Virus record (IMG/VR): IMGVR_UViG_3300017747_004654
Location: 1-53,366 of that record
Source of the DNA: a virus
Lineage: Duplodnaviria > Caudoviricetes
Length of the DNA: 53,366 bases
Direction: 5' to 3' (one strand)
In this document: piece after piece, positions 1,923-52,593 of the stretch
Layout of the letters: every line of letters starts with the position of its first letter
Numbering within the stretch: position 1 is the stretch's first letter
Notes under the pieces: model-generated
Seen by the model: only the letters and a program-made list of their open reading frames with translations
Databases searched by the model: none
Told to the model about the DNA's origin: nothing
Position numbers and translations under genes: made by a program

Positions 1923-2362
1923 CAGGAATAATTACAGAAGATAAAGAATTTAAAAAGGGTCCTCTTGTATATCATTCAACTGATCTACAAAATGCTTCAA
2001 ATATATTAAAAAGTGGTGAAATTAAAACTTATGAAAATATATTGAAATCAACAAATCAAAATCCTGAAGATTGGTATGAAGATCCTAATTATGGTAAATT
2101 TGTATATGTTTCTGATTTCCCACATGATAATAATAATTTTTATGGATTAGGTGATTTAGATGTTACTTTTGTAATTGATAGTAATAAAATAAAACATAAA
2201 ATGACCCAAGCTGATAAAAGTTATGAAGGTGGAACAATATCAGTAAATGGTAACATACCATTAAATGCTGTTGAAAAAGTTATTTTACATAAAGAAGATA
2301 ATAATATAATTAAATTATTGAATGATAAAAAATTAAATTTGAAATTAAAAAATAACCAATGA
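1886..2362 (+). CDS. ADP-ribosyltransferase-fold protein with an N-terminal scaffold-like tag
   Basis: LVYHST..NIL.SG, VYVS, IPLNAVEKV; N-terminus RMQRLAGIITE. Confidence 0.6.
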   Translation: MENKEIKRMQRLAGIITEDKEFKKGPLVYHSTDLQNASNILKSGEIKTYENILKSTNQNPEDWYEDPNYGKFVYVSDFPHDNNNFYGLGDLDVTFVIDSNKIKHKMTQADKSYEGGTISVNGNIPLNAVEKVILHKEDNNIIKLLNDKKLNLKLKNNQ

Positions 2363-2736
2363 AAAAATCAGAATTACAACAAATTATTAAAGAAGAAATT
2401 AATAATATTTTAAAAGAAAATCTATCTCAAGATATTATTACCTTTCTTGAAACTAATGGATTCATTAAGATAAGAAATAGAGAAGAATATCTAAAAGTTA
2501 TTCCTATCTTAACCCAAGCTGGATATTCATTGGTTGGTTATAAATTTCCAATAAAAATAACCCCTTTTGATGTTGGTTATGGGCAAAGAAGACAACCTAG
2601 AAAAAATAGTATATATTTAACTCGAAATACTATTGACCCCAAATATGATAAAAAAAAGTGGTTATGGATAGCTGATGTTTTAGATAAAAATAACATTGAT
2701 GATAGATTTCCTATTGGAAAACCTTACGCTTTATAA
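2359..2736 (+). CDS. Hypothetical protein with a putative capsid-targeting leader
   Basis: MKKSELQQIIKEEINNILKE leader; ATGA overlap with the upstream gene. Confidence 0.6.
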   Translation: MKKSELQQIIKEEINNILKENLSQDIITFLETNGFIKIRNREEYLKVIPILTQAGYSLVGYKFPIKITPFDVGYGQRRQPRKNSIYLTRNTIDPKYDKKKWLWIADVLDKNNIDDRFPIGKPYAL

Positions 2737-2764
2737 ATTTTAAAATATAAAAATTGGATAAAAC

Positions 2765-3547
2765 ATGAGAAAAATTAAATTTGACACTTGCATAGTAGGC
2801 ACAGGTAAAGCAGGAATAGACTTTTCAGCTAAATTAGCTCAAAAATATAATTTACCTACCGAGCAAAAGTCGGTCCAAATAGGCTGTAGATTTGAAAGCC
2901 CACAAAAATACTTCCAAAAATTAATTGATATTAGCTATGATTTCAAATTATATCAAAAACCAAATGATAAAGTATCTTTACGTTCATTTTGTACAAATAA
3001 CAATGCAGCTTATGTGGCTGTTGAGAACACTTATGGGGATATAAGTTATAATGGACATGCTAAAAAAGGTGAAGAATTTAGAAATGATATGACCAACTTT
3101 GGTATTCTAATGGAAATTAAAGGCATTGAAAATCCATTTGAATGGTCACGTGACTTAGTAAATAAATTACAAATTAGACCTAATAATACAGGTCTATATT
3201 ATTCACCTAATGGTACCCGCACTCCATCAAATACATCTGAAGGAACACTTATTAATACAGCCCAAATTGATGAAATTGGATTAAGAGATGTAGATAACGC
3301 ATTTCAGGGATATTGGTTTTATATTAAACAATTTATTGACAAAATGAACGAAGTATTTGAATTTGGTGATGATTGGGGAATCTATATACCTGAGGTAAAA
3401 TATGCCGCACCAGAACCTTTAACAAATCATTCTGATTTATCTTTAGTAGAATATTCTAATGTTCATTTCGTCGGAGATGCATTATCAGCAAGAGGTATAA
3501 CTGTTAGTGGTGCCCAAGCCATTTATGTAGCTGAATCGCTTTTATAG
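2765..3547 (+). CDS. FAD-dependent oxidoreductase, C-terminal fragment of a split gene
   Basis: FDTCIVGTGKAG, IGCRFE, RSFCTN, YNGH, TNFGIL, PEVKY, FVGDA..RGI motifs continue the fold begun at 746. Confidence 0.8.
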   Translation: MRKIKFDTCIVGTGKAGIDFSAKLAQKYNLPTEQKSVQIGCRFESPQKYFQKLIDISYDFKLYQKPNDKVSLRSFCTNNNAAYVAVENTYGDISYNGHAKKGEEFRNDMTNFGILMEIKGIENPFEWSRDLVNKLQIRPNNTGLYYSPNGTRTPSNTSEGTLINTAQIDEIGLRDVDNAFQGYWFYIKQFIDKMNEVFEFGDDWGIYIPEVKYAAPEPLTNHSDLSLVEYSNVHFVGDALSARGITVSGAQAIYVAESLL

Positions 3548-3555
3548 AATGTGCC

Positions 3556-3564
3556 ATATGTATA
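3556..3564 (+). promoter_or_regulatory. Late-type upstream motif variant (ATATGTATA)
   Basis: One mismatch to ATATTTATA, upstream of ATG 3588. Confidence 0.5.
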
Positions 3565-3587
3565 ATAAAATTATACTTATTTAAATA

Positions 3588-4259
3588 ATGGACTTAAGAA
3601 AATACATTCGTGAAATGGTAGAATCAGAGCTTGCAGAGATGGCTCGTATTTCTACAAACATCAAAATTGGTGATTCTGAAAAATTTGAAGCAGCAAAAGA
3701 ACTATATGCTGGAAGATGGTATGCTGATCTTCTTGATTTTGTTGAAGAAGCAGGAGAAGTAGGTATCCCACAACCTGAACTAGCTAGAATGTTAGGAAAA
3801 TCAGGAATGCAAGCTATTAATCCAATAGTTAGAGACTTTGTAGAAGCAGGTATTCTTACTAAAGGTGATTTATCAATGGCTAAAAAAGAAAAATCTGAAC
3901 CTAGTGGAATTAAAGGTCGTCCTACATCAGAAAAAACATTAATGGCTAAAGCCGTTAATTCAAAACTTGAAGCAGACGCTAACTACGAACCGACAGAAGA
4001 AGAAATGGCAATGTTAGGTCCTGAATTTGTTGAAAAACTTAAAATGCGTGTTAAAGGATTACTAAGACGTGGTCGTCCGGTAGCAGCTTCTAAAGCAAAA
4101 GATGGTATGATGGCTGCTATGAAAAATGTAGGAAATGAAGATGTAGATGGTGATGGTGATGTTGATGATGAGGATTTAGATATTGAAGATATCCAAGAAT
4201 CAGATACACTTAATGAATCATTTATCAGAATGCAAAAAATCGCTGGTATCATTAAATAA
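3588..4259 (+). CDS. Putative internal head DNA-binding protein (wHTH plus AT-hook-like motifs)
   Basis: QPELARMLGKS...IVRDFVEAGIL wHTH-like segment; KGRP and RRGRP; C-terminal RMQKIAGIIK matches the scaffold tail. Confidence 0.55.
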   Translation: MDLRKYIREMVESELAEMARISTNIKIGDSEKFEAAKELYAGRWYADLLDFVEEAGEVGIPQPELARMLGKSGMQAINPIVRDFVEAGILTKGDLSMAKKEKSEPSGIKGRPTSEKTLMAKAVNSKLEADANYEPTEEEMAMLGPEFVEKLKMRVKGLLRRGRPVAASKAKDGMMAAMKNVGNEDVDGDGDVDDEDLDIEDIQESDTLNESFIRMQKIAGIIK

Positions 4260-4282
4260 ATTTTATTAACTTAATTTAAATT

Positions 4283-4312
4283 GAGGGCTTGGATTACCAA
4301 GTCCTCTTTTTT
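4283..4312 (+). terminator. Rho-independent terminator
   Basis: GAGGGCTTGG-atta-CCAAGTCCTC plus T6. Confidence 0.85.
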
Positions 4313-4319
4313 ATATTCA
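4288..4319 (+). promoter_or_regulatory. Host-type promoter embedded in the terminator
   Basis: CTTG-N20-TATATTCA. Confidence 0.6.
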
Positions 4320-4337
4320 AATAAAAATAAAAGTTAT

Positions 4338-4565
4338 ATGAGCAATAAAAAAACAGATATTAAGCGTATTAAATCTCCAGATGGGATTATTCGTTGTATT
4401 AAAGATGGAAAACTTCACAATACTGATGGTCCAGCAGTAATTTATCCTGATGGTAAAGAAGAGTACCATCTAAATGGTTTTCAATATTCTAAAGATGAAT
4501 ATAAAAAACGTAAAAAAGAAGGTGAAGGTTTACCATGGTTTAAAAAAAGAGGAGAAAGATTTTAG
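4338..4565 (+). CDS. Small protein with an LHxxDGPA (MORN-like) repeat
   Basis: GKLHNTDGPAVIYPDGKEEY; start moved from TTG 4281 (upstream of the terminator) to in-frame ATG 4338. Confidence 0.6.
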   Translation: MSNKKTDIKRIKSPDGIIRCIKDGKLHNTDGPAVIYPDGKEEYHLNGFQYSKDEYKKRKKEGEGLPWFKKRGERF

Positions 4566-4628
4566 AAGGAGGGGAGACCACCTTTATATAAAATAGATAA
4601 TCAAAGAAAAAATAAATACTAGAAAATT

Positions 4629-5159
4629 ATGCGCATAGGATTCACAGGAACAGTATCAGTTGGTAAAACTACTTTAGTTAATTCATTAAAAGAATTACAT
4701 GAATTTAAACACTATAATTTTGCTACAGAACGTAGTAAATATTTACGTGATTTAGGAATACCTTTAAATACTGATAGTACTTTAAAAGGTCAAACTATAT
4801 TTTTAGCTGAGCGTTGTTCTGAATTAATAAGAGAAAATACTATTACTGATAGAACAGTAATTGATGTTATGGCATTTACCAAATGTGCTAAATCAATTAA
4901 TGATTATAATAAAAAATCATTTATTGAATATGCTTCTCCATTTATTTGGGATTATGATTATATATTTTATGTTTCTCCTATTGGTATTAAGATTGAAGAT
5001 AATGGAGTTAGAGAAACTAATGCTGAATATCGTGATTTAATTGATTTTACTATTAAAAATATTATTAATAGTAATCTTCATAATATTAAAAATTTTGGTA
5101 TTATCTCTGGTACTACTGAAGAAAGAATTAAACAAATTAAATTTTACTTAGGTTTTTAA
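4629..5159 (+). CDS. P-loop nucleotide kinase/ATPase (AAA_28, NadR/dNMP-kinase-like)
   Basis: GTVSVGKTT Walker A, ITDR..D, EDNGVR. Confidence 0.7.
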   Translation: MRIGFTGTVSVGKTTLVNSLKELHEFKHYNFATERSKYLRDLGIPLNTDSTLKGQTIFLAERCSELIRENTITDRTVIDVMAFTKCAKSINDYNKKSFIEYASPFIWDYDYIFYVSPIGIKIEDNGVRETNAEYRDLIDFTIKNIINSNLHNIKNFGIISGTTEERIKQIKFYLGF

Positions 5160-5167
5160 TATTTATA
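5159..5167 (+). promoter_or_regulatory. Late-type motif ATATTTATA
   Basis: Exact motif 17 nt upstream of ATG 5185. Confidence 0.65.
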
Positions 5168-5184
5168 TTAAAACAATATATTAA

Positions 5185-5823
5185 ATGAAAAATATTAAAA
5201 ATCAAATCAAAGAAATAATTCGTGAAGAATTAAATAAAATTAAAGAAAATATGTCTTCAAAATGGGATTCTTTATCCCATGAACAACGAGAAGATTTAAT
5301 TTCTACAGTTATTAAAGACCCAGATGACTATTTAAAATATATTGGATGGAAATGGGCTGAATTACCTGATGAAATAACTAATTTATTAGATACTATTCAA
5401 GATAATGAATTAAATGAAAATGAAATGGATTTTAATAAAGGAGATATTGTTAAAATAGATCCATTTTTAGACACAGATCCTTATAGCAAACGAGGTGAAG
5501 AAGGAATAATTTCTGATTTTGATGATGAAATAGCAACTATAAAGTTTGATGATGGTATAACTGGAAAATACCAATGGGGAACTTTTAGTAAAGTAGATAT
5601 AGAAGAAGCTGGAACATATGCTGGTAATAAATCTATTGATGACCTCAAAAAAGATTCAGACTATAACACATTGAATCCCCAAACCAAAACAGATGTTGAA
5701 AAAAAATTAAAAACTGGAGGAAGTATCACAATTGGAGAAAATAATTCTTCAAAAACATCATTTACAGGTCGTCCAATAACAGAATCTTTAAATGATAGAT
5801 TTAAAAGATTATTAAATTCTTAA
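5185..5823 (+). CDS. Putative internal head protein with an SH3/KOW-like domain
   Basis: Leader QIKEIIREELNKIKE; FNKGDIVKI...GII..FDDG; C-terminal ESLNDRFKRLL. Confidence 0.5.
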   Translation: MKNIKNQIKEIIREELNKIKENMSSKWDSLSHEQREDLISTVIKDPDDYLKYIGWKWAELPDEITNLLDTIQDNELNENEMDFNKGDIVKIDPFLDTDPYSKRGEEGIISDFDDEIATIKFDDGITGKYQWGTFSKVDIEEAGTYAGNKSIDDLKKDSDYNTLNPQTKTDVEKKLKTGGSITIGENNSSKTSFTGRPITESLNDRFKRLLNS

Positions 5824-5847
5824 AATTACTTTTTAATTTATTTAATT

Positions 5848-5873
5848 AAGCACCTTATTAGGTGCTTTTTTTT
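5848..5873 (+). terminator. Rho-independent terminator
   Basis: AAGCACCT-tatt-AGGTGCTT plus T run. Confidence 0.85.
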
Positions 5874-5912
5874 ATTTTTCATATATGTATATACGTAATT
5901 ATATACTAATAT

Positions 5913-7487
5913 ATGTCTGAAAAAGTAGACTTTAAACAAATAATAAGAGAAGAATATGTTAAATGTATTAAAGATCCTTCTCATTTTATGAACAAATATT
6001 GTTATGTACAACATCCCCAAAGAGGTAGAGTTTTATTTAATTTATATCCTTTTCAATCTAAAGTATTAAATCTTTGGCAACATAATCAATATAATATTGT
6101 ATTAAAATCAAGACAGTTAGGTATATCAACATTAGCCGCTGGTTATTCACTTTGGTTAATGTTATTTCATAAAGATAAAAACATATTATGTGTTGCTACT
6201 AAATCCGAAACAGCAAAAAATATGGTAACTAAAGTTCGATTTATGTTTGAACAATTACCAACATGGCTTAAAATAGGTGTAGAAGAAAATAATAGATTAT
6301 CTTTAAGATTATCGAATGGTTCACAAATAAAAGCAGTTTCTGCAGCTAGTGATGCAGGTAGATCTGAAGCAGTATCACTATTAATAGTAGATGAAGCAGC
6401 ATTTATAGACAATATTGAGGATATATACACAAGTATCAAACCCACAATTTCAGCTGGAGGAGGTTGTTTAATTTTAAGTTCTCCTAATGGTGTTGGTAAT
6501 TGGTTTCATCAAACATGGGCTAGATCTGAAGCAGATAATAATGACTTTTTACCCATTAAATTACCATGGTATGTTCATCCTGAAAGAAATAAAGAATGGT
6601 TTGAAAAAGAAACCAACAACATGTCACCAAAATTAGTTGCTCAAGAATATGAATGTGACTTCATATCATCAGGAGATACTGTATTCTCTCCAGAACATAT
6701 TGAATTTTATGAAAAAACATATCTAAAAGAACCAATTGAACGTAGAGGAGTAGATAAAAATTTATGGATTTGGGAATCTGTTGATTATAATAAAAATTAT
6801 ATGGTTATAGCAGACGTAGCTAGAGGTGATGGAAAAGATTATTCTGCTTTTCATATAATGGATATACAAAACAATATTCAAGTTGGAGAATATAAAGGAC
6901 AACTAAATACTACAGATTTTGGACATTTATTAGTGGGTATAGCCTCAGAATATAATGAAGCATTACTTGTAGTAGAAAATGCTAGTATAGGGTGGGCAAC
7001 AATACAAACTATATTAGATAGAGGATATAAAAATTTCTATTATTCTCCTAAAAGTGAAGCAATGAATTTAGAATCATATTTGGATAAATATGATAACCCT
7101 AATAATTTTGTTCCTGGATTTACTATGTCTTTAAAAACTAGACCTATGGTAATATCTAAAATGACTGAATATTTTTCTGAAAAAAGTGTTATTATTCAAA
7201 GTAAACGTTTATTAGAAGAAATGAAAACTTTTATTTGGAAAAATGGAAGATCTGAAGCTCAACAAGGATATAATGATGATTTAATAATGAGTTTTGGAGT
7301 AGGATTATATGTTAGAGATACTGCTCTTAGATTTAAACAACAAAACTTAGATTTAACTCGTGCAGCTTTAGACAGCTTTAAAACTACTAAAACATCATAT
7401 AATGGAGTTTATAGTCCTTCAAAATCTGATAACCCATATAAATTTGATGTTAATGGAAATAATGAAGATTTAAGGTGGCTTTTTTAA
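5913..7487 (+). CDS. terL: Terminase large subunit (T4 gp17-like)
   Basis: LYPFQ, KSRQLGIST, LIVDEAAF, SSPNG, QEYEC.F, ADVARG..DYS, NDDL. Confidence 0.95.
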   Translation: MSEKVDFKQIIREEYVKCIKDPSHFMNKYCYVQHPQRGRVLFNLYPFQSKVLNLWQHNQYNIVLKSRQLGISTLAAGYSLWLMLFHKDKNILCVATKSETAKNMVTKVRFMFEQLPTWLKIGVEENNRLSLRLSNGSQIKAVSAASDAGRSEAVSLLIVDEAAFIDNIEDIYTSIKPTISAGGGCLILSSPNGVGNWFHQTWARSEADNNDFLPIKLPWYVHPERNKEWFEKETNNMSPKLVAQEYECDFISSGDTVFSPEHIEFYEKTYLKEPIERRGVDKNLWIWESVDYNKNYMVIADVARGDGKDYSAFHIMDIQNNIQVGEYKGQLNTTDFGHLLVGIASEYNEALLVVENASIGWATIQTILDRGYKNFYYSPKSEAMNLESYLDKYDNPNNFVPGFTMSLKTRPMVISKMTEYFSEKSVIIQSKRLLEEMKTFIWKNGRSEAQQGYNDDLIMSFGVGLYVRDTALRFKQQNLDLTRAALDSFKTTKTSYNGVYSPSKSDNPYKFDVNGNNEDLRWLF

Positions 7488-9417: not shown

Positions 9418-9430
9418 AAAAATACATTTG

Positions 9431-10288
9431 ATGAAAATCGCACATTCTAAGTACCGTAATACTGGAATATTATTTGAAATTCTAATACGCCAAGTAACAT
9501 CTGATACTTTATCTGGAAAAGATTCCTCAGCATTGCCTATTATTAAAAAGTATTTTACTAAAACTGAACTTAGTAAAGAATATAGATTATATGAAACTTT
9601 ATTTAAAAATAAAAACCTTTCAGAATCAAAAGCAGAAATACTTATAAATACTTTATTGGAAGCTTCAACTAAATTAAATAAAACTTCATTAAGAAAACAA
9701 AAATATAATCTTATAAAAGAATTAAAAGAACATTATAATTTAGATGAATTATTTAAAACTAAATTACCAAATTATAAATTCCAAGCTGCATTTTTTATTC
9801 TTATAGAAAGTAAAAATTCTAAAGAAAATATAGATACTGAACAAGTATTTAATAATAAAATTACTTTATTAGAATCTTTAACTTCTTCAAAAATTAATAA
9901 AGAAGTCCCAAAGCCAACAGTACTTGATGAATTTAATGATTATGATAAAGATACTAGAATATTAACATATAAAATATTACTAGAAAAATTCAATAACAAG
10001 TATAAAAATTTAAGTGATAGACAAAAAAATATTTTAAAAGAATATATTAATTCTATAGATTCTACTCCAAAATTAAAAGAATTTTACAATCAAAATATTT
10101 TTGAATTAAAAACTGAAATTGTAGAATTAAATAAAAAAGTTAAAGATAAATCTGTTAGTATTAAGTTAAATGAAGTGGTTAAATTATTAAAAGAAATTGA
10201 TAAAACTTCTTCTATTAAAAGTGATGATATAGTAAATTTATTACAATATTATGATTTATTAAACGAATTAAAAGTAGTTAATAAATGA
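9431..10288 (+). CDS. Head-module hypothetical protein
   Basis: Long helical ORF between portal and protease; HSKYRNTGILFE N-terminus; ATG 9431 preferred over TTG 9428. Confidence 0.6.
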   Translation: MKIAHSKYRNTGILFEILIRQVTSDTLSGKDSSALPIIKKYFTKTELSKEYRLYETLFKNKNLSESKAEILINTLLEASTKLNKTSLRKQKYNLIKELKEHYNLDELFKTKLPNYKFQAAFFILIESKNSKENIDTEQVFNNKITLLESLTSSKINKEVPKPTVLDEFNDYDKDTRILTYKILLEKFNNKYKNLSDRQKNILKEYINSIDSTPKLKEFYNQNIFELKTEIVELNKKVKDKSVSIKLNEVVKLLKEIDKTSSIKSDDIVNLLQYYDLLNELKVVNK

Positions 10289-10638
10289 AACGTGATCAAT
10301 TAAAAGAAATAGTAAAGAAAAAACTTCAAGAGAATGGAGATGCAGTGGCTGCATTAAGAGATAAAAATTTAAAAGAAGTATTATCTCCTATGAAATTAGC
10401 AGATTTATTAGCTAAAGAAGGAGTTATTAAAGATGAATTTTTAGACATGAGAGGTGGAGCATCATCTAAACTTGGATTCATATTAGACAAATGTATTAAA
10501 GAATTAGAAATAGTAAAAGAAATATCTTCTACTGGGGGTGGAGCTTCTTTCACTCCAGGAGTTGGAGAACAATATGCTACACCAAAAGCATTTAATGGAA
10601 AGAAAAAACTTCCAATAATTAGAAAACCATTAAGATAA
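10285..10638 (+). CDS. Putative prohead core/internal protein
   Basis: MKRDQLKEIVKKKLQE leader; position in the head module. Confidence 0.5.
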   Translation: MKRDQLKEIVKKKLQENGDAVAALRDKNLKEVLSPMKLADLLAKEGVIKDEFLDMRGGASSKLGFILDKCIKELEIVKEISSTGGGASFTPGVGEQYATPKAFNGKKKLPIIRKPLR

Positions 10639-11959: not shown

Positions 11960-12592
11960 ATGAAACAAATTTTAAAAGAATATCATTCATTTAATTCAAA
12001 ACCCTTAACAATAAACGAAGCCTTATCAAAACAAGGTGGTAATTTATTTGTTGAAGGTATTTTGGCTACTGTAGAAGAAAAAAATGGTAATGGAAGATAT
12101 TATAAAAAAGAATTATGGGAAAGAGAAATTGAAAAATTTCAACAAAAAATAAATAACCACACCACTGAAACCTGTGGAGAACTAGACCACCCCGATAGTC
12201 AAATAATTAATTTAAAAAATGCATCTCATGCTGTTAGAAAATTATGGTGGGAGGGTGATGTAATTAAAGGATTATTAGAAATATTTTGTGCTGAAGATAG
12301 AAGAGGGAATGTTGCTGGTAGAATAGCAGGTTCATTTTTTTATAATAATTTATTAACTGGTATTTCTTCTCGTGGTATGGGTTCACTTAAACAAGTGGGT
12401 GAAATTTTAGAAGTACAAGATGATTTTGAACTATTAACCTGGGATCTAGTAAGTAATCCTTCAAACCACGGATCATACATGTCTCCAGTTAGTTTAAATG
12501 AAGGAGCAAATTCAGTATATGATCCTTATCATAAAGTAAATTCAATATTGAAAGATATTTTATGTTCTAATGGATCTTGCCCCATAATTTAA
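11960..12592 (+). CDS. Prohead maturation protease (T4 gp21-like)
   Basis: NGNGR.Y, GELDHP, GISSRGMGS, WDLVSNPS. Confidence 0.93.
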   Translation: MKQILKEYHSFNSKPLTINEALSKQGGNLFVEGILATVEEKNGNGRYYKKELWEREIEKFQQKINNHTTETCGELDHPDSQIINLKNASHAVRKLWWEGDVIKGLLEIFCAEDRRGNVAGRIAGSFFYNNLLTGISSRGMGSLKQVGEILEVQDDFELLTWDLVSNPSNHGSYMSPVSLNEGANSVYDPYHKVNSILKDILCSNGSCPII

Positions 12593-12777: not shown

Positions 12778-13770
12778 ATGAACAGAGATTTTTTAAAAGA
12801 AGCTATCGCTGATGCGAAGACAATCAAAGAAACAGCAATTGTGAATGCTAAAAAAGCTTTAGAAGAAACTTTTACCCCCCATTTACAATCCATGCTTTCT
12901 GCAAAAATTTCAGAAATAGAAGAAGCTGATCTAGAAGAAAATGAACTAGAAGAAGTAGAAGCTATAGATGAAATGGACAAAGAAATGGATGAAATGATGA
13001 AAAATGAAGATGAAAATCTAACTTATGAAACAGAAATGAAAAAAGGTAAAGATTTAGAAGAAGTAGATTTAGATGAACTATTAGCTGAACTAGAAAATGT
13101 TAATGAAGCTGAAGAAGAAATGGATGACACAGAAATGGATTCTGAAATGGATGATATGGATATAGATTCTAAAATGTCTGAAGAAGAATTTAGCATTGAA
13201 GACATGTCTGAAGAAGAATTAGTTTCATTTATTGAAAATGTAATTGAAGACATGATTAAAAGTGGTGAGCTAGAAGCTGGTGAATCAATGGAAAGTGAAG
13301 AAGAATTAGATGAAGAAATCAATTTAGAAGCACTTTTTAATGAAGAAGAAGAAATGGAAGAAGCTTATGAAGAAGATAAAATGATGGAAGCTTTAAAAAA
13401 CAAACTAAAAACAACTGAAACTGAACTTAAAGAAGCATATAGTGCTATCAACGAGATGAAGAATCAGTTAAATGAAGTAAATCTTTTAAATGCTAAATTG
13501 CTTTACGTTAACAAAATTTTCAAAGCTAAAACATTATCTGAAGGCCAAAAATTAGATGTTTTAACAGCATTTGATAAAGCAACAAATGTTAAAGAAGTAA
13601 AATTAATTTTTGAAACCCTTCATACCAATTTCAAAACATCAAAAACTCCAATTAAAGAAAATAGAATTGGATTTGCTTCAAAACCAACACAAGTTGTATC
13701 AAACCAAAAACCAATTATGGAAGTTGATGCTTTAGTAACCAAATTCCAAAAATTAGCAGGTATTATTTAA
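12778..13770 (+). CDS. Prohead scaffold protein (gp22-like)
   Basis: Highly acidic coiled-coil protein between protease and capsid; C-terminal KFQKLAGII. Confidence 0.85.
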   Translation: MNRDFLKEAIADAKTIKETAIVNAKKALEETFTPHLQSMLSAKISEIEEADLEENELEEVEAIDEMDKEMDEMMKNEDENLTYETEMKKGKDLEEVDLDELLAELENVNEAEEEMDDTEMDSEMDDMDIDSKMSEEEFSIEDMSEEELVSFIENVIEDMIKSGELEAGESMESEEELDEEINLEALFNEEEEMEEAYEEDKMMEALKNKLKTTETELKEAYSAINEMKNQLNEVNLLNAKLLYVNKIFKAKTLSEGQKLDVLTAFDKATNVKEVKLIFETLHTNFKTSKTPIKENRIGFASKPTQVVSNQKPIMEVDALVTKFQKLAGII

Positions 13771-13809: not shown

Positions 13810-15438
13810 ATGTCAAACACGATTCAAAATCTTTTAGAATCATCAAACCCATGGCAGTCATTGCAAAATGATGCTGCACGTTTGGCTTCTAAATGGACCA
13901 AAACAGGCTTACTTGAAGGCCTTAATGGAGAAATTGAAAAAAATAACATGTCACTTCTCCTTGAAAATCAAGCAAAACAATTACTTATTGAATCTTCACT
14001 TTCAGGTGGTGGTGTAGCTGGTGCTAGCTTTACAGTAGGTACTGGTGAACAATGGGCTGGAATTGCTCTTCCAATGGTAAGAAAAGTATTTGGACAAATT
14101 TCTTCTAAAGAATTTGTTTCTGTACAACCAATGAACTTACCTTCTGGTCTTGTATTCTTCCTAGATTTCCAATATGGAACTACTAAAGCTCCATTTACAT
14201 CTGGTACTTCACTTTATGGTACCACTTCAGGATCAGCTGATGCTTCAGGTGGTCTTTATGGTGGTGGTAGATTTACTTATTCTACTAACAACACTCAATC
14301 ACTTAATCCATCAGTTGCAGTAGTTACTGCTTCTTGGTCTGACTTTAATTTTGATTCAGCATATTCTGCTTCAGCAGTAAATGATGAGTATAAAAAAATA
14401 ACAGTTACTTTAGGTGCTGGTAGTAATGCTGATTTTAATGGTGTTAGAGGATTTACCTTTACTTCAGGTAGTCAAGTTACAGTTGCAAATAACCTTCCAG
14501 CATTTACTACAACTAATAATACTTCAACCGTATCATTTATTATAACAGGATCTGTTATTCCATCTGTTGCTACATTGAGTAATGCAACTTGTTCTTTCCA
14601 AACTCAACCTTTGGATAACAAGAGAGGTGATTTTGAAGATGGAAACACTACACTTAATGGTAACAACAACCCAATTGTAATTCCTGAACTTAACATTCAA
14701 ATGAGAAGTGAAGCTATTACTGCTAAAACTAAAAAGTTAAAAGCTGTATGGACTCCTGAATTTGCTCAAGACTTGAATGCTTATCAAAATTTGGATGCTG
14801 AATCTGAATTGACTAGCATTATGAGTGAATATGTTTCATTAGAAATTGACCTTGAAATTCTTGACATGTTAATTGAAAATGCTCCTAGCGTAGAATATTG
14901 GTCAGCTATTAACAACCAAGCAATTACTAGCGCTACAGGTGATGGTACATTTAATAACAGTTTAGGATTTTATAACACTCAAGGTGGATGGTTCCAAACA
15001 TTGGGCACTAAAATTCAGAAACTTAGCAACGTTATTCATCAGAAAACTCTTCGTGGTGGAGCTAATTTCTTAGTATGTTCTCCAACAGTAGCAACAGTTA
15101 TTGAATCAATTGCTGGATTTGCTTCTAACACTGATGGTGATGCTCACAAACAAAAATATGCGTTTGGTGTACAAAAAGCTGGTCAATTAAATGGTCGCTA
15201 TACTGTATACAAAAACCCATATATGCAAGAAAATACAATCTTGTTGGGATATAAAGGAAACCAATTCCTTGAAACTGGTGCTGTATTTGCTCCATATGTT
15301 CCATTGATTATGACTCCTCTTGTATACGATCCTGATACCTTTACTCCAAGAAAAGGTCTCTTGACTCGTTATGCTAAAAAGATGGTTCGTCCTGAATTCT
15401 ATGCTAAGATTTATGTTAGTGGTTTGAATACCCTATAA
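13810..15438 (+). CDS. Major capsid protein (T4 gp23-like)
   Basis: VSVQPM..PSGLVF, KLKAVWTPEFAQDL, LEID.EIL, APYVPL, F.PRKGLLTRY. Confidence 0.96.
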   Translation: MSNTIQNLLESSNPWQSLQNDAARLASKWTKTGLLEGLNGEIEKNNMSLLLENQAKQLLIESSLSGGGVAGASFTVGTGEQWAGIALPMVRKVFGQISSKEFVSVQPMNLPSGLVFFLDFQYGTTKAPFTSGTSLYGTTSGSADASGGLYGGGRFTYSTNNTQSLNPSVAVVTASWSDFNFDSAYSASAVNDEYKKITVTLGAGSNADFNGVRGFTFTSGSQVTVANNLPAFTTTNNTSTVSFIITGSVIPSVATLSNATCSFQTQPLDNKRGDFEDGNTTLNGNNNPIVIPELNIQMRSEAITAKTKKLKAVWTPEFAQDLNAYQNLDAESELTSIMSEYVSLEIDLEILDMLIENAPSVEYWSAINNQAITSATGDGTFNNSLGFYNTQGGWFQTLGTKIQKLSNVIHQKTLRGGANFLVCSPTVATVIESIAGFASNTDGDAHKQKYAFGVQKAGQLNGRYTVYKNPYMQENTILLGYKGNQFLETGAVFAPYVPLIMTPLVYDPDTFTPRKGLLTRYAKKMVRPEFYAKIYVSGLNTL

Positions 15439-17207: not shown

Positions 17208-17897
17208 ATGTCTCAACAAAATAATGAAGATACTTTTTCTAATAAAAGAAAACCTAAAGGTCCTATAAAATTTAAATTAGAATTAAACGAAGAACAAAAA
17301 GAAGCCAAACAAATTATTCTTGACAACCCAGTAACACTTATTAAAGGTATGGCTGGATCAGGTAAAACATTACTTGCTTGTCAAATAGCTTTAGATATGA
17401 CTTTTAAAAGAGAAATTGAAAAAATTATAATTACTCGTCCCACTGTATCTAAAGAAGAAATTGGATTTTTACCAGGTGATTTAAAAGAAAAAATGGATCC
17501 TTGGTTAGCACCTATTTATTCTAATTTATATCTATTATATGATAAAGAAAAAATAGATAAAATGGTTCAAGAAAATCAAATTGAAATAGTTCCATTTGCA
17601 TTTATGCGTGGTCGAACTTTTCCAAATTCTATTGTTATAGTAGATGAATGTCAAAATATTACTAATCAACAAACAGAAATGATGCTAGGTCGTTTAGGTA
17701 AAGGTGGTAAAATTATATTTTGTGGAGATTTATCCCAAGTAGATTTAAAAAGTAAAAAAGATTCAGGTATTAGTTTTTTTGCTCGTTTAGAAGAACGAAT
17801 TAAAGGAGTTAAAATTATCACTTTAAAGAAAAATCATCGTCACGAAATTGTTGAGGAGATATTAAAAACATATGAGGATTATAGGGATATTCAATAA
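17208..17897 (+). CDS. phoH: PhoH-family ATPase
   Basis: GMAGSGKT, GFLPGDL.EK, FMRGRTF, VDECQN, GD..QVDL, RH. Confidence 0.93.
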   Translation: MSQQNNEDTFSNKRKPKGPIKFKLELNEEQKEAKQIILDNPVTLIKGMAGSGKTLLACQIALDMTFKREIEKIIITRPTVSKEEIGFLPGDLKEKMDPWLAPIYSNLYLLYDKEKIDKMVQENQIEIVPFAFMRGRTFPNSIVIVDECQNITNQQTEMMLGRLGKGGKIIFCGDLSQVDLKSKKDSGISFFARLEERIKGVKIITLKKNHRHEIVEEILKTYEDYRDIQ

Positions 17898-17908
17898 AAA
17901 CTAAACAT

Positions 17909-17938
17909 AAGTCATTCAATAAAAAAATGGCTTTTTTT
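17909..17938 (+). terminator. Probable terminator
   Basis: AAGTCATT/AATGGCTT stem plus T run. Confidence 0.5.
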
Positions 17939-17948
17939 CTGTCTTTTA

Positions 17949-17957
17949 ATATTTATA
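17949..17957 (+). promoter_or_regulatory. Late-type motif ATATTTATA
   Basis: Exact motif 15 nt upstream of ATG 17973. Confidence 0.65.
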
Positions 17958-17972
17958 ACAAAAATATATTTC

Positions 17973-20299: not shown

Positions 20300-20311
20300 A
20301 ATAAGTATAAT

Positions 20312-47251: not shown

Positions 47252-48205
47252 ATGGCAATAACTGAACCTCGTCTTTATTATAAACCTTTTGAATATGAAA
47301 CAGCGTTTGAATATTATAAAAACCAACATCGTGCTCATTGGTTAGCTGATGAAGTACCTTTAGCATCTGATTTAAATGATTGGAAACTTAAACTAAATGA
47401 ATCCGAAAAAAACTTAATTGGAAACATTTTAAAATCATTTGCTCAAACAGAAGTACATGTTAATGATTATTGGTCAACAAAAGTATCAATTTGGTTTCCT
47501 AAACCTGAAATTCAAGCAATGGCTCGTGTATTTGCTGATTTTGAATCGATTCATGCTGAAGCATATGCTCGTTTAAATGAAGAATTAGGTTTAGATGATT
47601 TTAGAGCGTTTTTAGAAGATGAAGTATCAAAAGCTAAAATTGATCGTTTAATTGAGGTACCTGGAGAAACATTAGAGGAAAGAGCATTATCATTAGCTAT
47701 ATTCTCAGCGTTTACTGAAGGTGTAAATTTATTTAGTTCATTTGCAATATTGATGAGTTTTCAATTAAGAAACTTAATGAAGGGCACAGGTCAAATTGTC
47801 GCTTGGAGTGTTCGAGATGAGTCATTGCATTCAAAAGCAGGATGCTGGCTATTTAAAACATTACTTCAGGAACAACCAGAACTAGATACCCCAGAATTAA
47901 GAAGTAAAGTTGTAGAAGCATGTGAATTATCAATTCAGTTAGAGTTTGACTTTATTGAGAAAGCATTTGAGATGGGTGATATTGATGGTTTAACTAAAGA
48001 CCAATTAAAAAACTTTATTAAAGCAAGAGCAAATGAAAAACTAGTAGAACTAGGGTACAGTGGGGTATATAATGACATTGATCCATCTTTACTTAAACAA
48101 ATAGAGTGGTTTGGACATTTAACTAATGGAGTTGAACATCAAGACTTCTTTGCAGGTCGAGTAACAAGTTATTCAAAATCAACAGCAGATTGGGACGATT
48201 TATAA
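47252..48205 (+). CDS. nrdB: Ribonucleotide reductase class I beta subunit
   Basis: W...EV....D..DW, ESIHAEAY (radical Tyr), EGV.LFSSF, RDESLH, DFF..RVT.Y. Confidence 0.95.
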   Translation: MAITEPRLYYKPFEYETAFEYYKNQHRAHWLADEVPLASDLNDWKLKLNESEKNLIGNILKSFAQTEVHVNDYWSTKVSIWFPKPEIQAMARVFADFESIHAEAYARLNEELGLDDFRAFLEDEVSKAKIDRLIEVPGETLEERALSLAIFSAFTEGVNLFSSFAILMSFQLRNLMKGTGQIVAWSVRDESLHSKAGCWLFKTLLQEQPELDTPELRSKVVEACELSIQLEFDFIEKAFEMGDIDGLTKDQLKNFIKARANEKLVELGYSGVYNDIDPSLLKQIEWFGHLTNGVEHQDFFAGRVTSYSKSTADWDDL

Positions 48206-48215
48206 AATAAATACC

Positions 48216-48893
48216 ATGAAATTACTAGACATATTATTAGAAACATATAAAGAAGAATATAAATTAAATCTTAAAGAGGGTTTAATTAAAACTACTAATA
48301 TTGGTAAAACATTAAATCTTTTAGAAAAAAAATATTCATCAAAATTTATATTTACTAGAAGTAAAAATTCATTTTATATTAAAACATTTAGTACAAATAT
48401 TAATACTTTATTAAATGATATTATTAAAGACGCAGATACTTTAGGATGGTTTCCTTCATTTATGGAAACTGAAAAATATACAGGACAGTGGGATAAAAAA
48501 TATTTTAAAGAAGGTGAAATTAAATTAAGATTTGAAGCTAAATTTGATGAAGAAATAGTTGAAAATATTCCTTCTATTTTATATCATATTACTCCTACAC
48601 AAAATGTTAATAAAATTTTAAATATAGGGTTAGTACCTAAATCAAGATCAAAAGCATCATATCATCCTGATAGAGTTTATTTATCTAAAGATTTAGAAGA
48701 TATAGAAGATTTAGGAGAAATGTTTTATCAAAAGACAGGAATAAAAAACTGGACAATATTAAAAATAGAGACAGATATGGTTCCTGGAGGATATTTAAAA
48801 CTATATACTGATCCAAATTATAAATTAGGGTATTATACTTTAAACAATATCCCACCGCAAGCAATAGAAAAAATTAAAGAAATAAATTTATGA
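48216..48893 (+). CDS. Tpt1/KptA-like ADP-ribosyltransferase-fold protein with a putative capsid-targeting leader
   Basis: LYHIT....KIL..GL.P.SR.....RVYLS, ILKI, IPPQAI; MKLLDILLE leader. Confidence 0.65.
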   Translation: MKLLDILLETYKEEYKLNLKEGLIKTTNIGKTLNLLEKKYSSKFIFTRSKNSFYIKTFSTNINTLLNDIIKDADTLGWFPSFMETEKYTGQWDKKYFKEGEIKLRFEAKFDEEIVENIPSILYHITPTQNVNKILNIGLVPKSRSKASYHPDRVYLSKDLEDIEDLGEMFYQKTGIKNWTILKIETDMVPGGYLKLYTDPNYKLGYYTLNNIPPQAIEKIKEINL

Positions 48894-50611
48894 GCACAGT
48901 AGATACAAGTAAGTGGGTTAAAGGAAAAAACTACCCTGAATGGATGGATGACATCGCAGTAAGCATGATTTCAAAAGGTTATTTATTGCCTGATGAAGAT
49001 GTTTTTGATGCGTATAAACGAGTTAGTAAAGCAGCATCCCGTAGATTAAAACGTAAAGATTTACAACCATTCTTTTACGAAGCAATAGTTAAAAATTGGT
49101 TATGCTTAGCCTCACCTATTTTATCAAATATGGGTACTGAACGTGGAATGCCCATTTCATGTTTTGGCATTAATGTTGGAGACAGCATTGAAGGTATTGC
49201 AGATGCAAATTCAGAATTAATGCGATTATCATCTCAAGGTGGAGGTGTTGGAATTGGTTTATCTCGTATTAGAGGACGAGGTAAATCTATTAAAGATAAT
49301 GGAGTAAGTGAAGGTGTTGTACCTTGGGCTAAAATATATGATTCAACTATTCTAGCTACAAACCAAGGTTCAGTTCGTAGAGGTGCAGCTTCAATTAATT
49401 TATCTATTAACCACCCAGATATCGAAGAATTTTTAGGTATTCGCCGTCCAAAAGGTGATGTTAATAGACAATGTTTAAATTTACATCAATGTGTTGTTAT
49501 TGATGATGAATTCATGAATAAATTAGAAAATGGAGATTCTAGAGCTAAAAAGTTGTGGGGTGAAATTTTAAAAACACGCCTTGAAACTGGTGAACCGTAT
49601 ATTATGTTTGAGGACAATATGAACAATGCAAATCCTGAAGCATATAAAAACAATAATTTAAAAGTTGAATTTACAAATATATGTTCAGAAATTGCACTCT
49701 ATAGTGATGAACTCCACTCATTCATCTGCTGTCTATCTTCATTAAATTTAGCTCGTTGGGATGAATGGAAAGATTATAAATTTGAAAACGGAATGACTCT
49801 CCCTGAATTAACTTGCTGGTTTCTAGAAGGCGTATTACAGGAATTCATTGATAGAGCTAAAAATATGAAATTCATGGAAAACACAGTCCGCTCAGCCACT
49901 AAAGGTAGAGCAATAGGAATTGGCGTTTTAGGATGGCATACATTTTTACAACAAAAAGGAATACCATTTGTAGGCATTCAAGCAAGTGCACAAACAAGAA
50001 TTATATCAGAATTTATATATAACGAAGCATTAAAAGCAAGCAGAAAACAAGCAGAACTTTATGGTGAACCAGAATGGTGTAAAGGAACAGGTTTGAGACA
50101 TACCCACCACATTGCTATTGCCCCAACAGTTTCAAATGCTCATATTTCAGGAGGTGTATCACCTTCAATTGAACCTATTCCTGCAAATGTATATAATTTA
50201 AAAACTGCAAAAGGTGTTTTTATTAAATGTAATAAAATTTTAGAAGCGTTACTTGAGAAAAAAGGATACAATATTGATAGTGTTTGGGATCAAATTTTAA
50301 AAGATCAAGGATCTGTTTTAGGTTTACCTGATTATATTTTAACTAATGAAGAAAAAGAAATATTTTTAACTTTCAAAGAAATTAATCAATTAGAAATTGT
50401 AAAACAGAATGGTATTAGACAAAAATATGTTGATCAAGCTATTTCATTAAATTTATGCTTCGATCCAAATGATACTCCAAAATGGATTTCCCAAGTACAT
50501 AAAGAGGCTTGGAAACAAGGTATTAAAACATTGTATTATTTACGTACTGAAAGTGTGTTGAGAGGAGACAATTTACAACGTTTAGCAGATTGTGTTGCCT
50601 GTGAAAGTTAA
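48890..50611 (+). CDS. nrdA: Ribonucleotide reductase class I alpha subunit (no ATP cone)
   Basis: SP.L.N.G, ISCF, GGGVG, RRGA, TNICSEI, APT.S, KTLYY, C-terminal CVAC. Confidence 0.95.
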   Translation: MSTVDTSKWVKGKNYPEWMDDIAVSMISKGYLLPDEDVFDAYKRVSKAASRRLKRKDLQPFFYEAIVKNWLCLASPILSNMGTERGMPISCFGINVGDSIEGIADANSELMRLSSQGGGVGIGLSRIRGRGKSIKDNGVSEGVVPWAKIYDSTILATNQGSVRRGAASINLSINHPDIEEFLGIRRPKGDVNRQCLNLHQCVVIDDEFMNKLENGDSRAKKLWGEILKTRLETGEPYIMFEDNMNNANPEAYKNNNLKVEFTNICSEIALYSDELHSFICCLSSLNLARWDEWKDYKFENGMTLPELTCWFLEGVLQEFIDRAKNMKFMENTVRSATKGRAIGIGVLGWHTFLQQKGIPFVGIQASAQTRIISEFIYNEALKASRKQAELYGEPEWCKGTGLRHTHHIAIAPTVSNAHISGGVSPSIEPIPANVYNLKTAKGVFIKCNKILEALLEKKGYNIDSVWDQILKDQGSVLGLPDYILTNEEKEIFLTFKEINQLEIVKQNGIRQKYVDQAISLNLCFDPNDTPKWISQVHKEAWKQGIKTLYYLRTESVLRGDNLQRLADCVACES

Positions 50612-50625
50612 ACAATATAAATTTT

Positions 50626-51261
50626 ATGAAAGTTCATTATATTTGGATAGGTACTGAAGAAATACCTTTTAAATATTTAGATAATTTTAAAAAATGTACT
50701 TCTCTAAATCCAATTTTTTCATTTCAAATATGGAAAAATCACGATTGTATTAATATATTAGATGAATATGGACTATCAAATTATTGGTTAGAATTAACAT
50801 TTATTTGTAAATGTAATTTATTAAAATATTTAATATTACATAAATTCGGAGGAATATATACCGATTTTGATATAACATGGAAAATATCTTTTACAAAAAT
50901 ATTAAATGATTTTAATTTTGGATATAATGATTTAATATTAACGGTTTTAGATAATAATCCTATCAACATAAATAATAATTTAGTAGATTTATTAGATGAC
51001 CCATTTATAGTAAGTAAACCAAACATTTTAGGAGCATGTATTAATTATTGTAAAAATAGAAATAAATTAAAATACGATGGAGATTTTTTCATAAAAAATA
51101 AACAGTTAAAAATACATGATTTAGAACCTATAGGTCCTTTTGGACTAACAGAATGGATATATTTTAATAATATTAAATTTTCAAGTTTCCATCAATCTAT
51201 GTTATTAGATAAAAATGGATATTTTGGAAAACATGAACAAAAAACAATTTGGAAAAGTTAA
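50626..51261 (+). CDS. DXD glycosyltransferase (GT32/OCH1-like)
   Basis: HYIWIG, YLIL..FGGIYTDFD, GPF.LT. Confidence 0.8.
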   Translation: MKVHYIWIGTEEIPFKYLDNFKKCTSLNPIFSFQIWKNHDCINILDEYGLSNYWLELTFICKCNLLKYLILHKFGGIYTDFDITWKISFTKILNDFNFGYNDLILTVLDNNPININNNLVDLLDDPFIVSKPNILGACINYCKNRNKLKYDGDFFIKNKQLKIHDLEPIGPFGLTEWIYFNNIKFSSFHQSMLLDKNGYFGKHEQKTIWKS

Positions 51262-51283
51262 ATTTATTTCATATATTTAAAAT

Positions 51284-52096
51284 ATGCACAAAATAAAAGT
51301 ATTTCATGAAGCCCCATTATCATTAATGGATAAAATCCAACAACACACTGATGGTGATTATTGTCTTCCTCATTTAATAGATAAACACCCAGAATATGAA
51401 TATTATTTTATTAGAGCTAAAACATTAAATAGATATATTTTAATGGATAATTCTCTTCATGAATTAGGAGTACCATATTCTGAAGATAGATTGTTTCATT
51501 GGTTAGAAGTATTACAACCTAATGAATTTTTTGTTCCTGATTATTGGCAAGATAAAAATAAATCTGTAGTTTCTGCTAAAACATGGATAAATTATGAAAA
51601 AAACTATTCTAATACTAAATTTATAGCTGTAGTACAAGCAGACAATGTAACTGAAGCAATAGAATGTTTTCAAATTTATAAAGATTTGGGATATAAAAAA
51701 ATTGCTTTATCATATGGAGCAAATTGGTATAAAGATATATCTCCATTAGCTGAATTTAACAACAACCATTTAGATTTAGCAAAAATGTTGGGGAGAATTG
51801 AATTTATTAAAATATTATATTCAAAAGGATTATTAACAGATAATGATAATATTCATTTATTAGGTTGTTCTTTACCTCAAGAATTCGTACATTACCACGA
51901 TAAAAAAGCTATAAAATCTATAGATACTTCTAACCCAATAATATCAGCATATGAAGGATTAAAATATAGTGATACGGGATTAAATATAAAACCAAAAACT
52001 AAAATAGATGAAATAATAGAAATTAATAAAGATAAAATTTTACCTGAATTATTAAATTATAATATTTCAATGTTTAGAAAAATAAATAAGTTATGA
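51284..52096 (+). CDS. TGT-fold protein (queuine tRNA-ribosyltransferase/DpdA-like)
   Basis: ILMDNS, VPD, AVVQ, IHLLG, SIDTS motifs; adjacent to queC. Confidence 0.55.
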   Translation: MHKIKVFHEAPLSLMDKIQQHTDGDYCLPHLIDKHPEYEYYFIRAKTLNRYILMDNSLHELGVPYSEDRLFHWLEVLQPNEFFVPDYWQDKNKSVVSAKTWINYEKNYSNTKFIAVVQADNVTEAIECFQIYKDLGYKKIALSYGANWYKDISPLAEFNNNHLDLAKMLGRIEFIKILYSKGLLTDNDNIHLLGCSLPQEFVHYHDKKAIKSIDTSNPIISAYEGLKYSDTGLNIKPKTKIDEIIEINKDKILPELLNYNISMFRKINKL

Positions 52097-52593
52097 TAAA
52101 ATTAAAACTTATATATGAACAACTTTTAAAAGAGGTAGGAGATTTAGAAAATATTAAATCTTACCCTTATACTTCTAATAGTTTTTCTACGGATTTAGGT
52201 TTAAAAGCAAATGTTAGATTTCAAGAATATAATAATAGAGATATAGAAGCATTAAATCTTAATACTAAATATTATCAAGCCCCAATATTTAATGTTATTT
52301 TTGATATTGAAGGAGATGAAAACCAATTTATTAAAACAACATTAGATGAATATTTAAAAATAATTAAAACTGTAACTGAAATATGTGTTGATTTTATTAA
52401 AGAAAAAAATCCAAACGGATTAACATTTTTTGCAGCCTCTAAAAATAGAAATAATTTATTTAAAACTGATCCTCAAAAATCTAAATTTTATAAAGTTATA
52501 GTTATAAAACAATTAAGTAAAATTCAAGGATGGGGATTAATAAATTTATCATTAGATGATGAATTTGAAGGATTTATGATGTATAAAAAATAA
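52093..52593 (+). CDS. Hypothetical protein with a putative capsid-targeting leader
   Basis: MIKLKLIYEQLLKE leader; ATGA overlap. Confidence 0.55.
   Translation: MIKLKLIYEQLLKEVGDLENIKSYPYTSNSFSTDLGLKANVRFQEYNNRDIEALNLNTKYYQAPIFNVIFDIEGDENQFIKTTLDEYLKIIKTVTEICVDFIKEKNPNGLTFFAASKNRNNLFKTDPQKSKFYKVIVIKQLSKIQGWGLINLSLDDEFEGFMMYKK

Follow-up and report, generated by a model that had tools for sequence, protein, structure and literature searches.

Within the 53,366-base viral contig IMGVR_UViG_3300017747_004654 (Caudoviricetes), analysed over its whole length and hereafter called the window, we delineate a family of short N-terminal leaders, for which we coin the name family A: a 20–22-residue amphipathic helix at the start of the protein, with the consensus MK(I/L)TKSQLKQIIKEEIxKVLxE (also written MK(IT)KSxLKQIIKEEIxKVLxE). 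The leader is a discrete, strictly N-terminal module, conserved as a peptide, that stands before diverse small cargos (the parts of the proteins that follow it) and closes in a protease-type end. Judging from sequence comparisons, the family is real, and between two and four of its members lie in the window. The explanation that we prefer, although with no more than even confidence, is that family A may be a clip-off propeptide, similar to the capsid targeting sequence (CTS) of phage T4, that belongs to a clade of aquatic myophages of the Far-T4 type. What ties it to the head protease is circumstantial evidence, though coherent, and roles in injection or anti-defence are speculation.

A leader family recognised by its own profile

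The preliminary description of this DNA had proposed that seven otherwise unrelated open reading frames (ORFs, named here by their start positions) begin with a similar short helix ending in (L/I)xE, and that several head proteins start in the same manner. The ORFs that it named are all present at their coordinates, with the N-termini as quoted. Taken as an N-terminal signal in its own right, the plain (L/I)xE motif shows no excess over chance: it occurs in the first 25 residues of 20 of the 58 sizeable ORFs of the window, against 24.9% of 13,883 internal windows (binomial p = 0.066), and with the Glu at positions 10–22 in 14 of the 58, against 15.7% (p = 0.062). Among best ungapped pairings of N-termini, eight of 1653 pairs (0.48%) score 30 or more, only slightly more than the 0.28% of 9918 internal-window pairs; the highest score (45) belongs to the pair 2359–5185, and the N-terminus of the large terminase pairs with both of these at 33–36.

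A first profile of family A, made from exact KQIIKEEI matches, was too sharp, giving ORF 5185 a score of -5 bits, and was replaced by an iterated profile built without window sequences from seven related contigs and genomes and from proteins returned by searches; it gives 50 hits at 10 bits or more, 43 of which begin at residue 3 or earlier. With 11,600 shuffled N-termini as the null, this window-free profile places ORF 2359 at 31–35 bits and ORF 5185 at 12–16 bits, both as high as none of the shuffles, and ORF 10285 at 4–7 bits, a level attained by 0.11% of them. ORF 3588 scores -0.8 bits (15% of shuffles as high). Scores within the shuffles are likewise obtained for ORF 29918 (0.4–3.7 bits, 3.7 on the N-terminal 30 residues), ORF 48216 (-0.7 to -3.8 bits, -0.7 on the N-terminal 30 residues) and ORF 52093 (-1.6 to -2.8 bits, -1.6 on the N-terminal 30 residues), as well as for the protease, the MCP (major capsid protein) and ORF 10910, whose starts had been put forward as kin of the leader. 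With the leader profile, the interior of the 58 window proteins nowhere rises above 1 bit. Hence the seven proposed leaders fare unequally: 2359 and 5185 are clear, 10285 is marginal, 3588 is doubtful, and 29918, 48216 and 52093 are matters of chance. The worry that such leaders might score no better than random N-termini is dispelled for the first two and holds for the last three.

2359..2418, + strand: family A leader, residues 1–20 of ORF 2359, MKKSELQQIIKEEINNILKE; clear member
2359..2736, + strand: cargo ORF 2359, 125 residues; no Pfam or PHROG family matched
5185..5247, + strand: family A leader, residues 1–21 of ORF 5185, MKNIKNQIKEIIREELNKIKE; member, ending in IKE21
5185..5823, + strand: cargo ORF 5185, 212 residues, a chain of three shuffled small modules, with partial matches of distant proteins
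10285..10332, + strand: leader-like N-terminus, 16 residues, of the small head-module protein 10285–10638; marginal member
3588..3638, + strand: proposed leader of ORF 3588–4259; doubtful, a short remnant at most
5913..7487, + strand: large terminase, whose N-terminus FKQIIREEY mimics the leader core; false positive at 7–12 bits
29918..30484, + strand: ORF 29918, proposed as a 'kinase' carrier; non-member, no Pfam match
48216..48893, + strand: Tpt1/KptA-like protein (ADP-ribosyltransferase, ART, superfamily fold, as modelled) between nrdB and nrdA; no demonstrable leader
52093..52593, + strand: ORF 52093, proposed as a carrier; non-member, no family signal

The modularity of the leader is evident from the homologues of ORF 2359. 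Twenty of the 22 that were found could be aligned with the query, and they are alike from about residue 29 on while their N-termini differ: among the 21 aligned rows, nine have leader A (MKKSELKQIIKEEI..LKEN), five open with another leader (MKKADNFD..WLVENK..LNE), the remaining seven having only a short start or none at all, and the leader is therefore a swappable module. ORF 2359 has two [LIVM]xE sites in all, both within the leader, which ends in LKE20. Its AlphaFold model (predicted local distance difference test, pLDDT, 88) shows a helix over residues 3–33, and a Foldseek search of the PDB with this model gave no match at E ≤ 0.001. A predicted complex of the scaffold protein with 2359 scored 0.01, which counts neither for nor against binding; a tblastn search of cultured phages with the 25-residue 2359 leader found no match, an uninformative outcome that is probably owed to the short query or to filtering.

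The three modules of ORF 5185, namely a KWDxLS..DPD..LPD module, an SH3-like stretch and a GTYAG..TIGE module, recur singly or reordered in distant proteins, where they stand behind leader A, another leader or none. The partial matches of these proteins begin and end near residues 21–24, 80–82, 138–142 and 188–192, and the [LIVM]xE sites of 5185, at residues 21, 78, 141 and 185, lie close to the module borders. A search for related loci with 5185 retrieved only one near-identical contig and two weak partial matches.

ORF 10285, whose gene sits between those of the portal and the protease, probably carries a degenerate family A leader. Its orthologues in G012 and in Flavobacterium phage vB_FspM_immuto (hereafter immuto) consist of a similar start fused to a motif like the N-arm of the MCP, and nothing else; the C-terminal part of 10285 itself (ISSTGGGASFTPGVGEQY) resembles the MCP right after its predicted cut (SSLSGGGVAGASFTVGTGEQW, 13993–14070). 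In ORF 3588, residues 12–94 align to an internal part of protein P0027 (E = 1e-13), which therefore leaves only about 11 residues ahead of the domain; these resemble the leader variant of P0026–28. The large terminase, for its part, is set aside as a look-alike, since six relatives conserve the terminase N-terminus in which its KQIIREE stretch lies and which leads directly into KCxKDPxxF.

The leader across viruses and the nature of its cargos

We scanned IMG/VR with a degenerate DNA pattern for the octapeptide KQIIKEEI, which occurs there in more than 126 stretches; the counts below are among the matches listed. In 104 of 130 distinct ORF contexts the octapeptide lies at codon 6 or 8 from the Met, the full distribution being as follows.

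Codon 6: 37 ORFs
Codon 8: 67 ORFs
Codons 13–26: 9 ORFs
Codon 30 or later: 8 ORFs
No ATG upstream: 5 ORFs
Codon 1: 2 ORFs
Codon 7: 1 ORF
Codon 9: 1 ORF

Where the motif lies at codon 13 or beyond, several ORFs have an internal MK(I)TK start that is preceded by an upstream in-frame ATG. On several contigs three to five leader genes stand in tandem. The core DNA is represented by 77 distinct 24-nucleotide cores in 127 stretches, and the identity between cores is 0.46 at the third codon position against 0.71 at positions 1 and 2; synonymous sites thus vary freely, and selection therefore acts on the leader peptide. The same freedom of synonymous sites led us to reject a DNA-level repeat or recombination signal.

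A control scan of 596 Gb of prokaryotic sequence gave 89 stretches, two of which were flagged as leader-like by rule; the only convincing case is L249, a 6.5-kb contig of a Flavobacteriaceae metagenome-assembled genome. Among carrier contigs of at least 40 kb, 15 of 23 encode PF03420, the family of the gp21-type prohead protease, over the cut-off, and the other eight are 12–65% complete according to CheckV. Five fetched carrier contigs with head modules belong to the clade of the window, with identities of 45–62% for the large terminase, 35–68% for the portal and, in the four that gave matches, 37–63% for the MCP. When five cultured T4-type phages were searched, family A was matched in immuto only, where a local scan locates three family-A genes.

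What follows the leader in 94 ORFs sorts by BLASTP into 83 clusters, 76 of them singletons, and the median ORF has 105 residues. The idea of one leader combined with a freely varying domain is therefore borne out far beyond the window, and the leader-profile scan of related phages that the preliminary description had suggested did find diverse parts behind one leader. Its designation of the carriers as enzymes is not apt: the cargos are small ORFans, nearly all lack Pfam domains (91 of 94 have none over the curated cut-off, the three exceptions being DnaJ, FliG_C and a borderline DUF2115 whose match includes the leader), ORF 2359 has no known fold and ORF 5185 is a chain of modules. The DnaJ case is L086:1-348, an IMG/VR locus in which a J-domain (53.5 bits) directly follows a family-A leader. 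A leader of the double-glycine kind, as in ribosomally synthesized and post-translationally modified peptides, was rejected on the size of the cargos, by the median just given, and on the lack of a Gly-Gly end.

These distributions bear on the possibility that the resemblance is an effect of composition, shared by Lys/Glu/Ile-rich N-termini in an AT-rich genome. Composition accommodates the result for the generic (L/I)xE motif (p = 0.066) and the scores of 29918, 48216, 52093, the protease, the MCP and 10910 within the shuffles. It is refuted for the core members 2359 and 5185, which none of the 11,600 shuffles matches, and it sits badly with the absence of internal stretches above 1 bit in the window proteins, with six-frame scans of two T4-type genomes that peak at 6.6 bits (9.0 with the profile A2) and with a position that is fixed in 104 of the 130 ORFs from viruses, compared with 2 of the 89 prokaryotic matches. 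We regard this explanation as very improbable.

The leader end and the head maturation machinery

All 58 sizeable ORFs of the window lie on the + strand of a contig with 25–32% G+C along its length (27% overall). Pfam and PHROGs searches recognise a T4-type large terminase (5913), a gp20 portal (7524), an MCP of the gp23 type at 13810 (PF07068, E = 3.2e-75), sheath, tube and baseplate genes, and genes of the UvsX, DnaB, NrdA/B and QueC types. By its MCP the closest cultured relative is immuto, at 54% identity, and the MCPs of T4 and cyanophages reach about 25–36% over parts of the protein only. The contig is a fragment of a Far-T4-type myophage. The head genes that bear on the leader are as follows.

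11960..12592, + strand: prohead protease of the T4 gp21 / Peptidase_S77 type (PF03420, E = 9.4e-21; phrog_207, E = 2.2e-42)
12778..13770, + strand: scaffold-like prohead core protein, between protease and MCP
13810..13992, + strand: predicted MCP propeptide, residues 1–61, ending in LLIE followed by SS (alignment with T4 gp23)

Conservation stops after the Glu of the leader, the end being V-L-x-E followed by a small residue. This Glu lies six residues after EEI in 64 of the 130 leaders, 61 of which have [LIVM] two residues before it, and at a distance of five in a further 26, of which 20 have [LIVM] in that place; a [LIVM]xE ending five or six residues after EEI is thus present in 81 of 130, again among the matches listed. 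The logo over 79 leaders has Val at P4 in 29, Leu at P3 in 60, Glu at P1 and G, A, N or S at P1' in 47. This end resembles the predicted maturation site of the MCP, where Glu61 of the window protein aligns with Glu65 of T4 gp23 and a hydrophobic-x-Glu occupies that column in six of six clade MCPs. We take Glu65 of gp23 to be the gp21 cut site; the annotation of the record says only that gp23 is cut by gp21. T4 gp21, gp22 and gp24 begin with short Glu-terminated stretches, as do the clade proteases and the window MCP, and the window protease has an N-terminal L-x-E at residue 7 that is conserved in the clade.

These features can be accommodated in a simple scheme. The leader helix would lend the freshly synthesised protein an affinity for the prohead core during its assembly; the gp21/S77-type protease encoded at 11960, the presumed processing enzyme of the leaders, would then cut after the Glu of the terminal V-L-x-E, a site of the same kind as the predicted MCP cut; and the freed cargo domain would stay in the head and may leave with the DNA.

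Such a scheme has a counterpart in the T-even phages, whose internal proteins are described, in the available portions of the sources, as diverse and having only the capsid targeting sequence in common; according to the same portions, ten residues are enough for loading in T4, and the CTS may be a general T4-like loading route (PMC3012670, PMC9026906). Family A is comparable to the CTS, which is borne by IPI, IPII, IPIII and Alt and removed by gp21, in being a short N-terminal peptide on unrelated, fast-changing proteins, in its hydrophobic-x-Glu end, in the presence of a gp21/S77 protease, a gp23-type MCP and a scaffold in the phage, and in the short Glu-terminated stretches with which the head proteins themselves start. 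It differs in occurring on far more genes per clade, with tandem arrays of three to six, and in coexisting with at least three other interchangeable leader families; moreover, the CTS has been shown to load foreign proteins, whereas loading by leader A would follow by analogy.

A second parallel is offered by giant phages. The logo of a related protease there is Ala-x-Glu, with Val at P4 and Ser at P1', and its N-terminal propeptides have 20 and 24 residues, as far as the accessible part of the source extends (PMC10052503). The propeptides in question (SPN3US gp245, phiKZ gp175) share with leader A the cut after Glu, the three-residue motif, the preference for Val at P4, the small P1' and the length, and differ in having Ala-x-Glu where leader A has Leu-x-Glu; nor do the accessible parts of the sources describe them as one common swappable leader family (PMC10052503, PMC9026906). 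Signal peptides and lipoprotein signals are likewise N-terminal address labels on unrelated proteins, but leader A is charged and amphipathic, without a hydrophobic core or a signal-peptidase site. Our literature searches, which took in part of the Far-T4 paper (PMC4360716), found no description of the leader.

The distribution of potential cleavage sites bears on the fate of the cargos. The scaffold has 27 [LIVM]xE sites, or 8.2 per 100 residues against 1.93 for the proteome, and its C-terminal FQKLAGII is conserved in relatives; together with the head-module proteins 9428 (6.3 per 100), 10285 (5.1 per 100) and 10910 it shows the highest densities, spanning 3.5–8.2 per 100. The head-module protein encoded at 9428–10288, which matches no family, is conserved in each of the six relatives with a head module and may belong to the prohead core. 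That the densest proteins are these four would suit a different course of events, in which the leader targets the core and is cut and the cargos are core or scaffold accessory material, degraded and expelled rather than injected as effectors. The sites of 5185 at its module borders and the 91 of 94 ORFs without a recognisable domain point the same way. The cargo domain of 2359 speaks against such a fate, as it has no site outside the leader and is confidently folded in the model; so does the relative scarcity of sites in cargo parts overall, whose observed-to-expected ratio is 0.85 in one set (75 ORFs) and 0.99 in another (26 ORFs), as compared with 1.20 in 527 other ORFs. The 83 clusters among 94 ORFs, too, would look more like arms-race cargo than structural filler. 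We think degradation and expulsion of the cargos improbable.

Other Glu-terminated leaders

Three further leaders that end in Glu can take the place of leader A. When 970 N-termini were clustered de novo, among proteins with unrelated remainders only, five groups emerged.

Family A: 41 members
Signal peptides: 10 members
Family D, EQFxRMQKLAGIITE: 7 members, ORF 1886 of the window among them
Family E, MKKLLTEWRKFLKE (LLENWxKFLxE type): 7 members
Family B/C, MENFDLKKFLVENKL..LLKE (NFDLKKFLVENKL type): 5 members

The four leader families (A, B/C, D and E) all end in hydrophobic-x-Glu, and family D is the conserved C-terminus of the scaffold. Two window features belong here.

1886..1939, + strand: family D leader MENKEIKRMQRLAGIITE on ORF 1886–2362, which adjoins 2359 (N-terminal cluster; scaffold C-terminal motif)
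4221..4256, + strand: C-terminal peptide of ORF 3588, FIRMQKIAGIIK, matching the scaffold C-terminus

Families D and A occur in the same phages and often on neighbouring genes (1886 beside 2359; in G012, 136220 beside 136730), and family D, ending in I-T-E, is Glu-terminated like family A while being a different sequence family. A copy of the scaffold peptide ..QKLAGII (13735–13767) is found C-terminally in 3588 and N-terminally, with TE following, in 1886, and peptides of the scaffold type are also reused in G012 (four genes) and immuto (two genes). The pattern [LIM]AG[ILV] appears in the last 14 residues of eight of the 970 ORFs: six scaffolds, ORF 3588 and a 762-residue protein beside a protease. 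None of 100 3'-complete IMG/VR ORFs with the leader-A octapeptide has a scaffold-type C-terminal peptide. Family E (MKKLLTEWRKFLKE / LFENWNKFLNE) heads five or six tandem genes in G004 (125833–131988) and is found again in G008 (17689–21469); immuto (NC_055915) carries families A (genes at 102294, 102880 and 113188), B/C (1803, 103806, 117631 and 118632) and D (25061 and 111675).

A processed leader or a permanent helix

It is also conceivable that the leader is a permanent helix with some other job, such as self-association, binding to a host factor or a phage machine, or localisation, which is left uncut, has nothing to do with the capsid and spreads among accessory genes by recombination. 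The amphipathic, heptad-like pattern of leader A is in keeping with this, and several further observations both favour such a helix and weigh against a clip-off propeptide. In the model of 2359 a single unbroken helix spans residues 3–33 and has the leader as its opening portion, and the proposed cut would therefore fall inside a helix. A site in the expected register is lacking in 46–51 of the 130 leaders (about 38%). The terminase, which is not head-internal, reaches 7–12 bits with its look-alike, and such helices can therefore arise independently. Most leader genes lie outside the head module, and a late-like motif stands directly upstream of 10 of 41 tagged genes as compared with 118 of 898 untagged ones, in classes drawn by crude regular expressions.

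Other points also count against processing. Leader A has 20–22 residues where the T4 CTS has ten, a comparison of length and not of sequence. Searches matched no family A in P-SSM2 or S-PM2, and six-frame scans of Syn9 and HTVC008M (147–177 kb) revealed no leader, the window-free profile reaching 6.6 bits at best and the profile A2, which includes the window leaders, 9.0 bits; an S77 protease alone therefore does not imply a leader. Finally, our literature search did not find a proteome of any carrier phage.

Against these stand features that a permanent helix leaves unexplained, such as the abrupt stop of conservation at V-L-x-E before a small residue. Three other interchangeable leaders end alike, one of them copying the scaffold C-terminus; the leader is restricted to phages with an S77 protease; and sites are relatively scarce in the cargo parts. 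We consider an uncut helix unlikely, though deserving of serious attention, and retain the clip-off propeptide as the best explanation. Within the head modules, a family-A gene in G018 (35402) comes directly after the protease gene, and a conserved protein of 133–145 residues encoded after the protease has a leader-like start.

The motif ATATTTATA, a candidate late promoter, occurs 15 times on the + strand and four times on the - strand (e.g. 5159, 9409, 17949, 27477, 34896); 13 of the 15 on the + strand stand no more than 60 nt upstream of a start, namely 11 in the virion module, one at 5185, where the motif lies 26 nt upstream, and one at nrdB. Relatives have related motifs; the one in G012 precedes six homologues of window virion genes, as against none for the other motif. 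Promoter timing is not decisive.

Genomic setting of the tagged genes

Several carriers had been said to interrupt unrelated gene clusters, and the positions are right for three of them: 2359 is inside a split oxidoreductase, 48216 is between nrdB and nrdA, and 52093 is ahead of queC. Only the first of these is a family member. The FAD/NAD oxidoreductase is split into 746–1288 and 2765–3547, which match positions 2–162 and 185–276 of the phrog_12409 profile, and the gap holds a GIY-YIG endonuclease-like ORF (1242–1922) and the leader-tagged ORFs 1886 and 2359. This arrangement suggests that the tagged genes 1886 and 2359 may have travelled with a homing-endonuclease cassette.

For ORF 48216, the ART-like fold proposed in the preliminary description is upheld and the leader is not. 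The model (pLDDT 78.7) is predicted to adopt an ADP-ribosyltransferase-superfamily fold of the Tpt1/KptA branch (Foldseek match to Tpt1/KptA at E = 3.4e-6 and probability 1.00, with template modelling scores of 0.38–0.48), and the protein has no Pfam match. Its first 32 residues are conserved, like the rest of the protein, in all 19 homologues that were aligned and so are not swappable; in the model, residues 1–21 form a low-confidence helix apart from the domain. In G012 the slot between nrdB and nrdA is filled by an unrelated gene with a clear family-A leader, which is identical to the 48216 start at 10 of 21 positions, a level that is not significant. The slot, spanning 47252–50611 in the window and 90754–94186 in G012, is a recurrent insertion site of accessory genes.

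Of the two remaining non-members, ORF 29918 follows the tail tube gene, with a terminator-like hairpin ahead of it, and has a glycine-rich loop that only visual inspection likens to a kinase; the one relative that it has in the fetched genomes, immuto 103366–103806, is flanked by family-A and family-B/C genes. The N-terminus of ORF 52093 belongs only to a two-member look-alike pair, the partner being G012 (40833).

Implications for the biology of Far-T4-type phages

If family A is indeed a clip-off propeptide, a motif of 20 residues would suffice to recognise from sequence the proteins that are packaged, and perhaps injected, throughout a clade of uncultured T4-related phages, and would provide a first functional handle on proteins that are mostly ORFans. 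The idea of the T4 CTS, known from a few phages of enterobacteria, would then take in a remote aquatic lineage, and would do so with several parallel leaders. A broader and more tentative proposal, possible in our view although we lean against it, is that Far-T4-type aquatic phages would use at least four interchangeable clip-off leaders to mark fast-turnover ORFans for capsid loading and co-delivery with the DNA. Different leaders may dock on different prohead partners, for instance family D on the capsid protein, at the scaffold site, and family A on the core; if so, the proteins that an uncultured phage injects could be predicted from its leaders alone.

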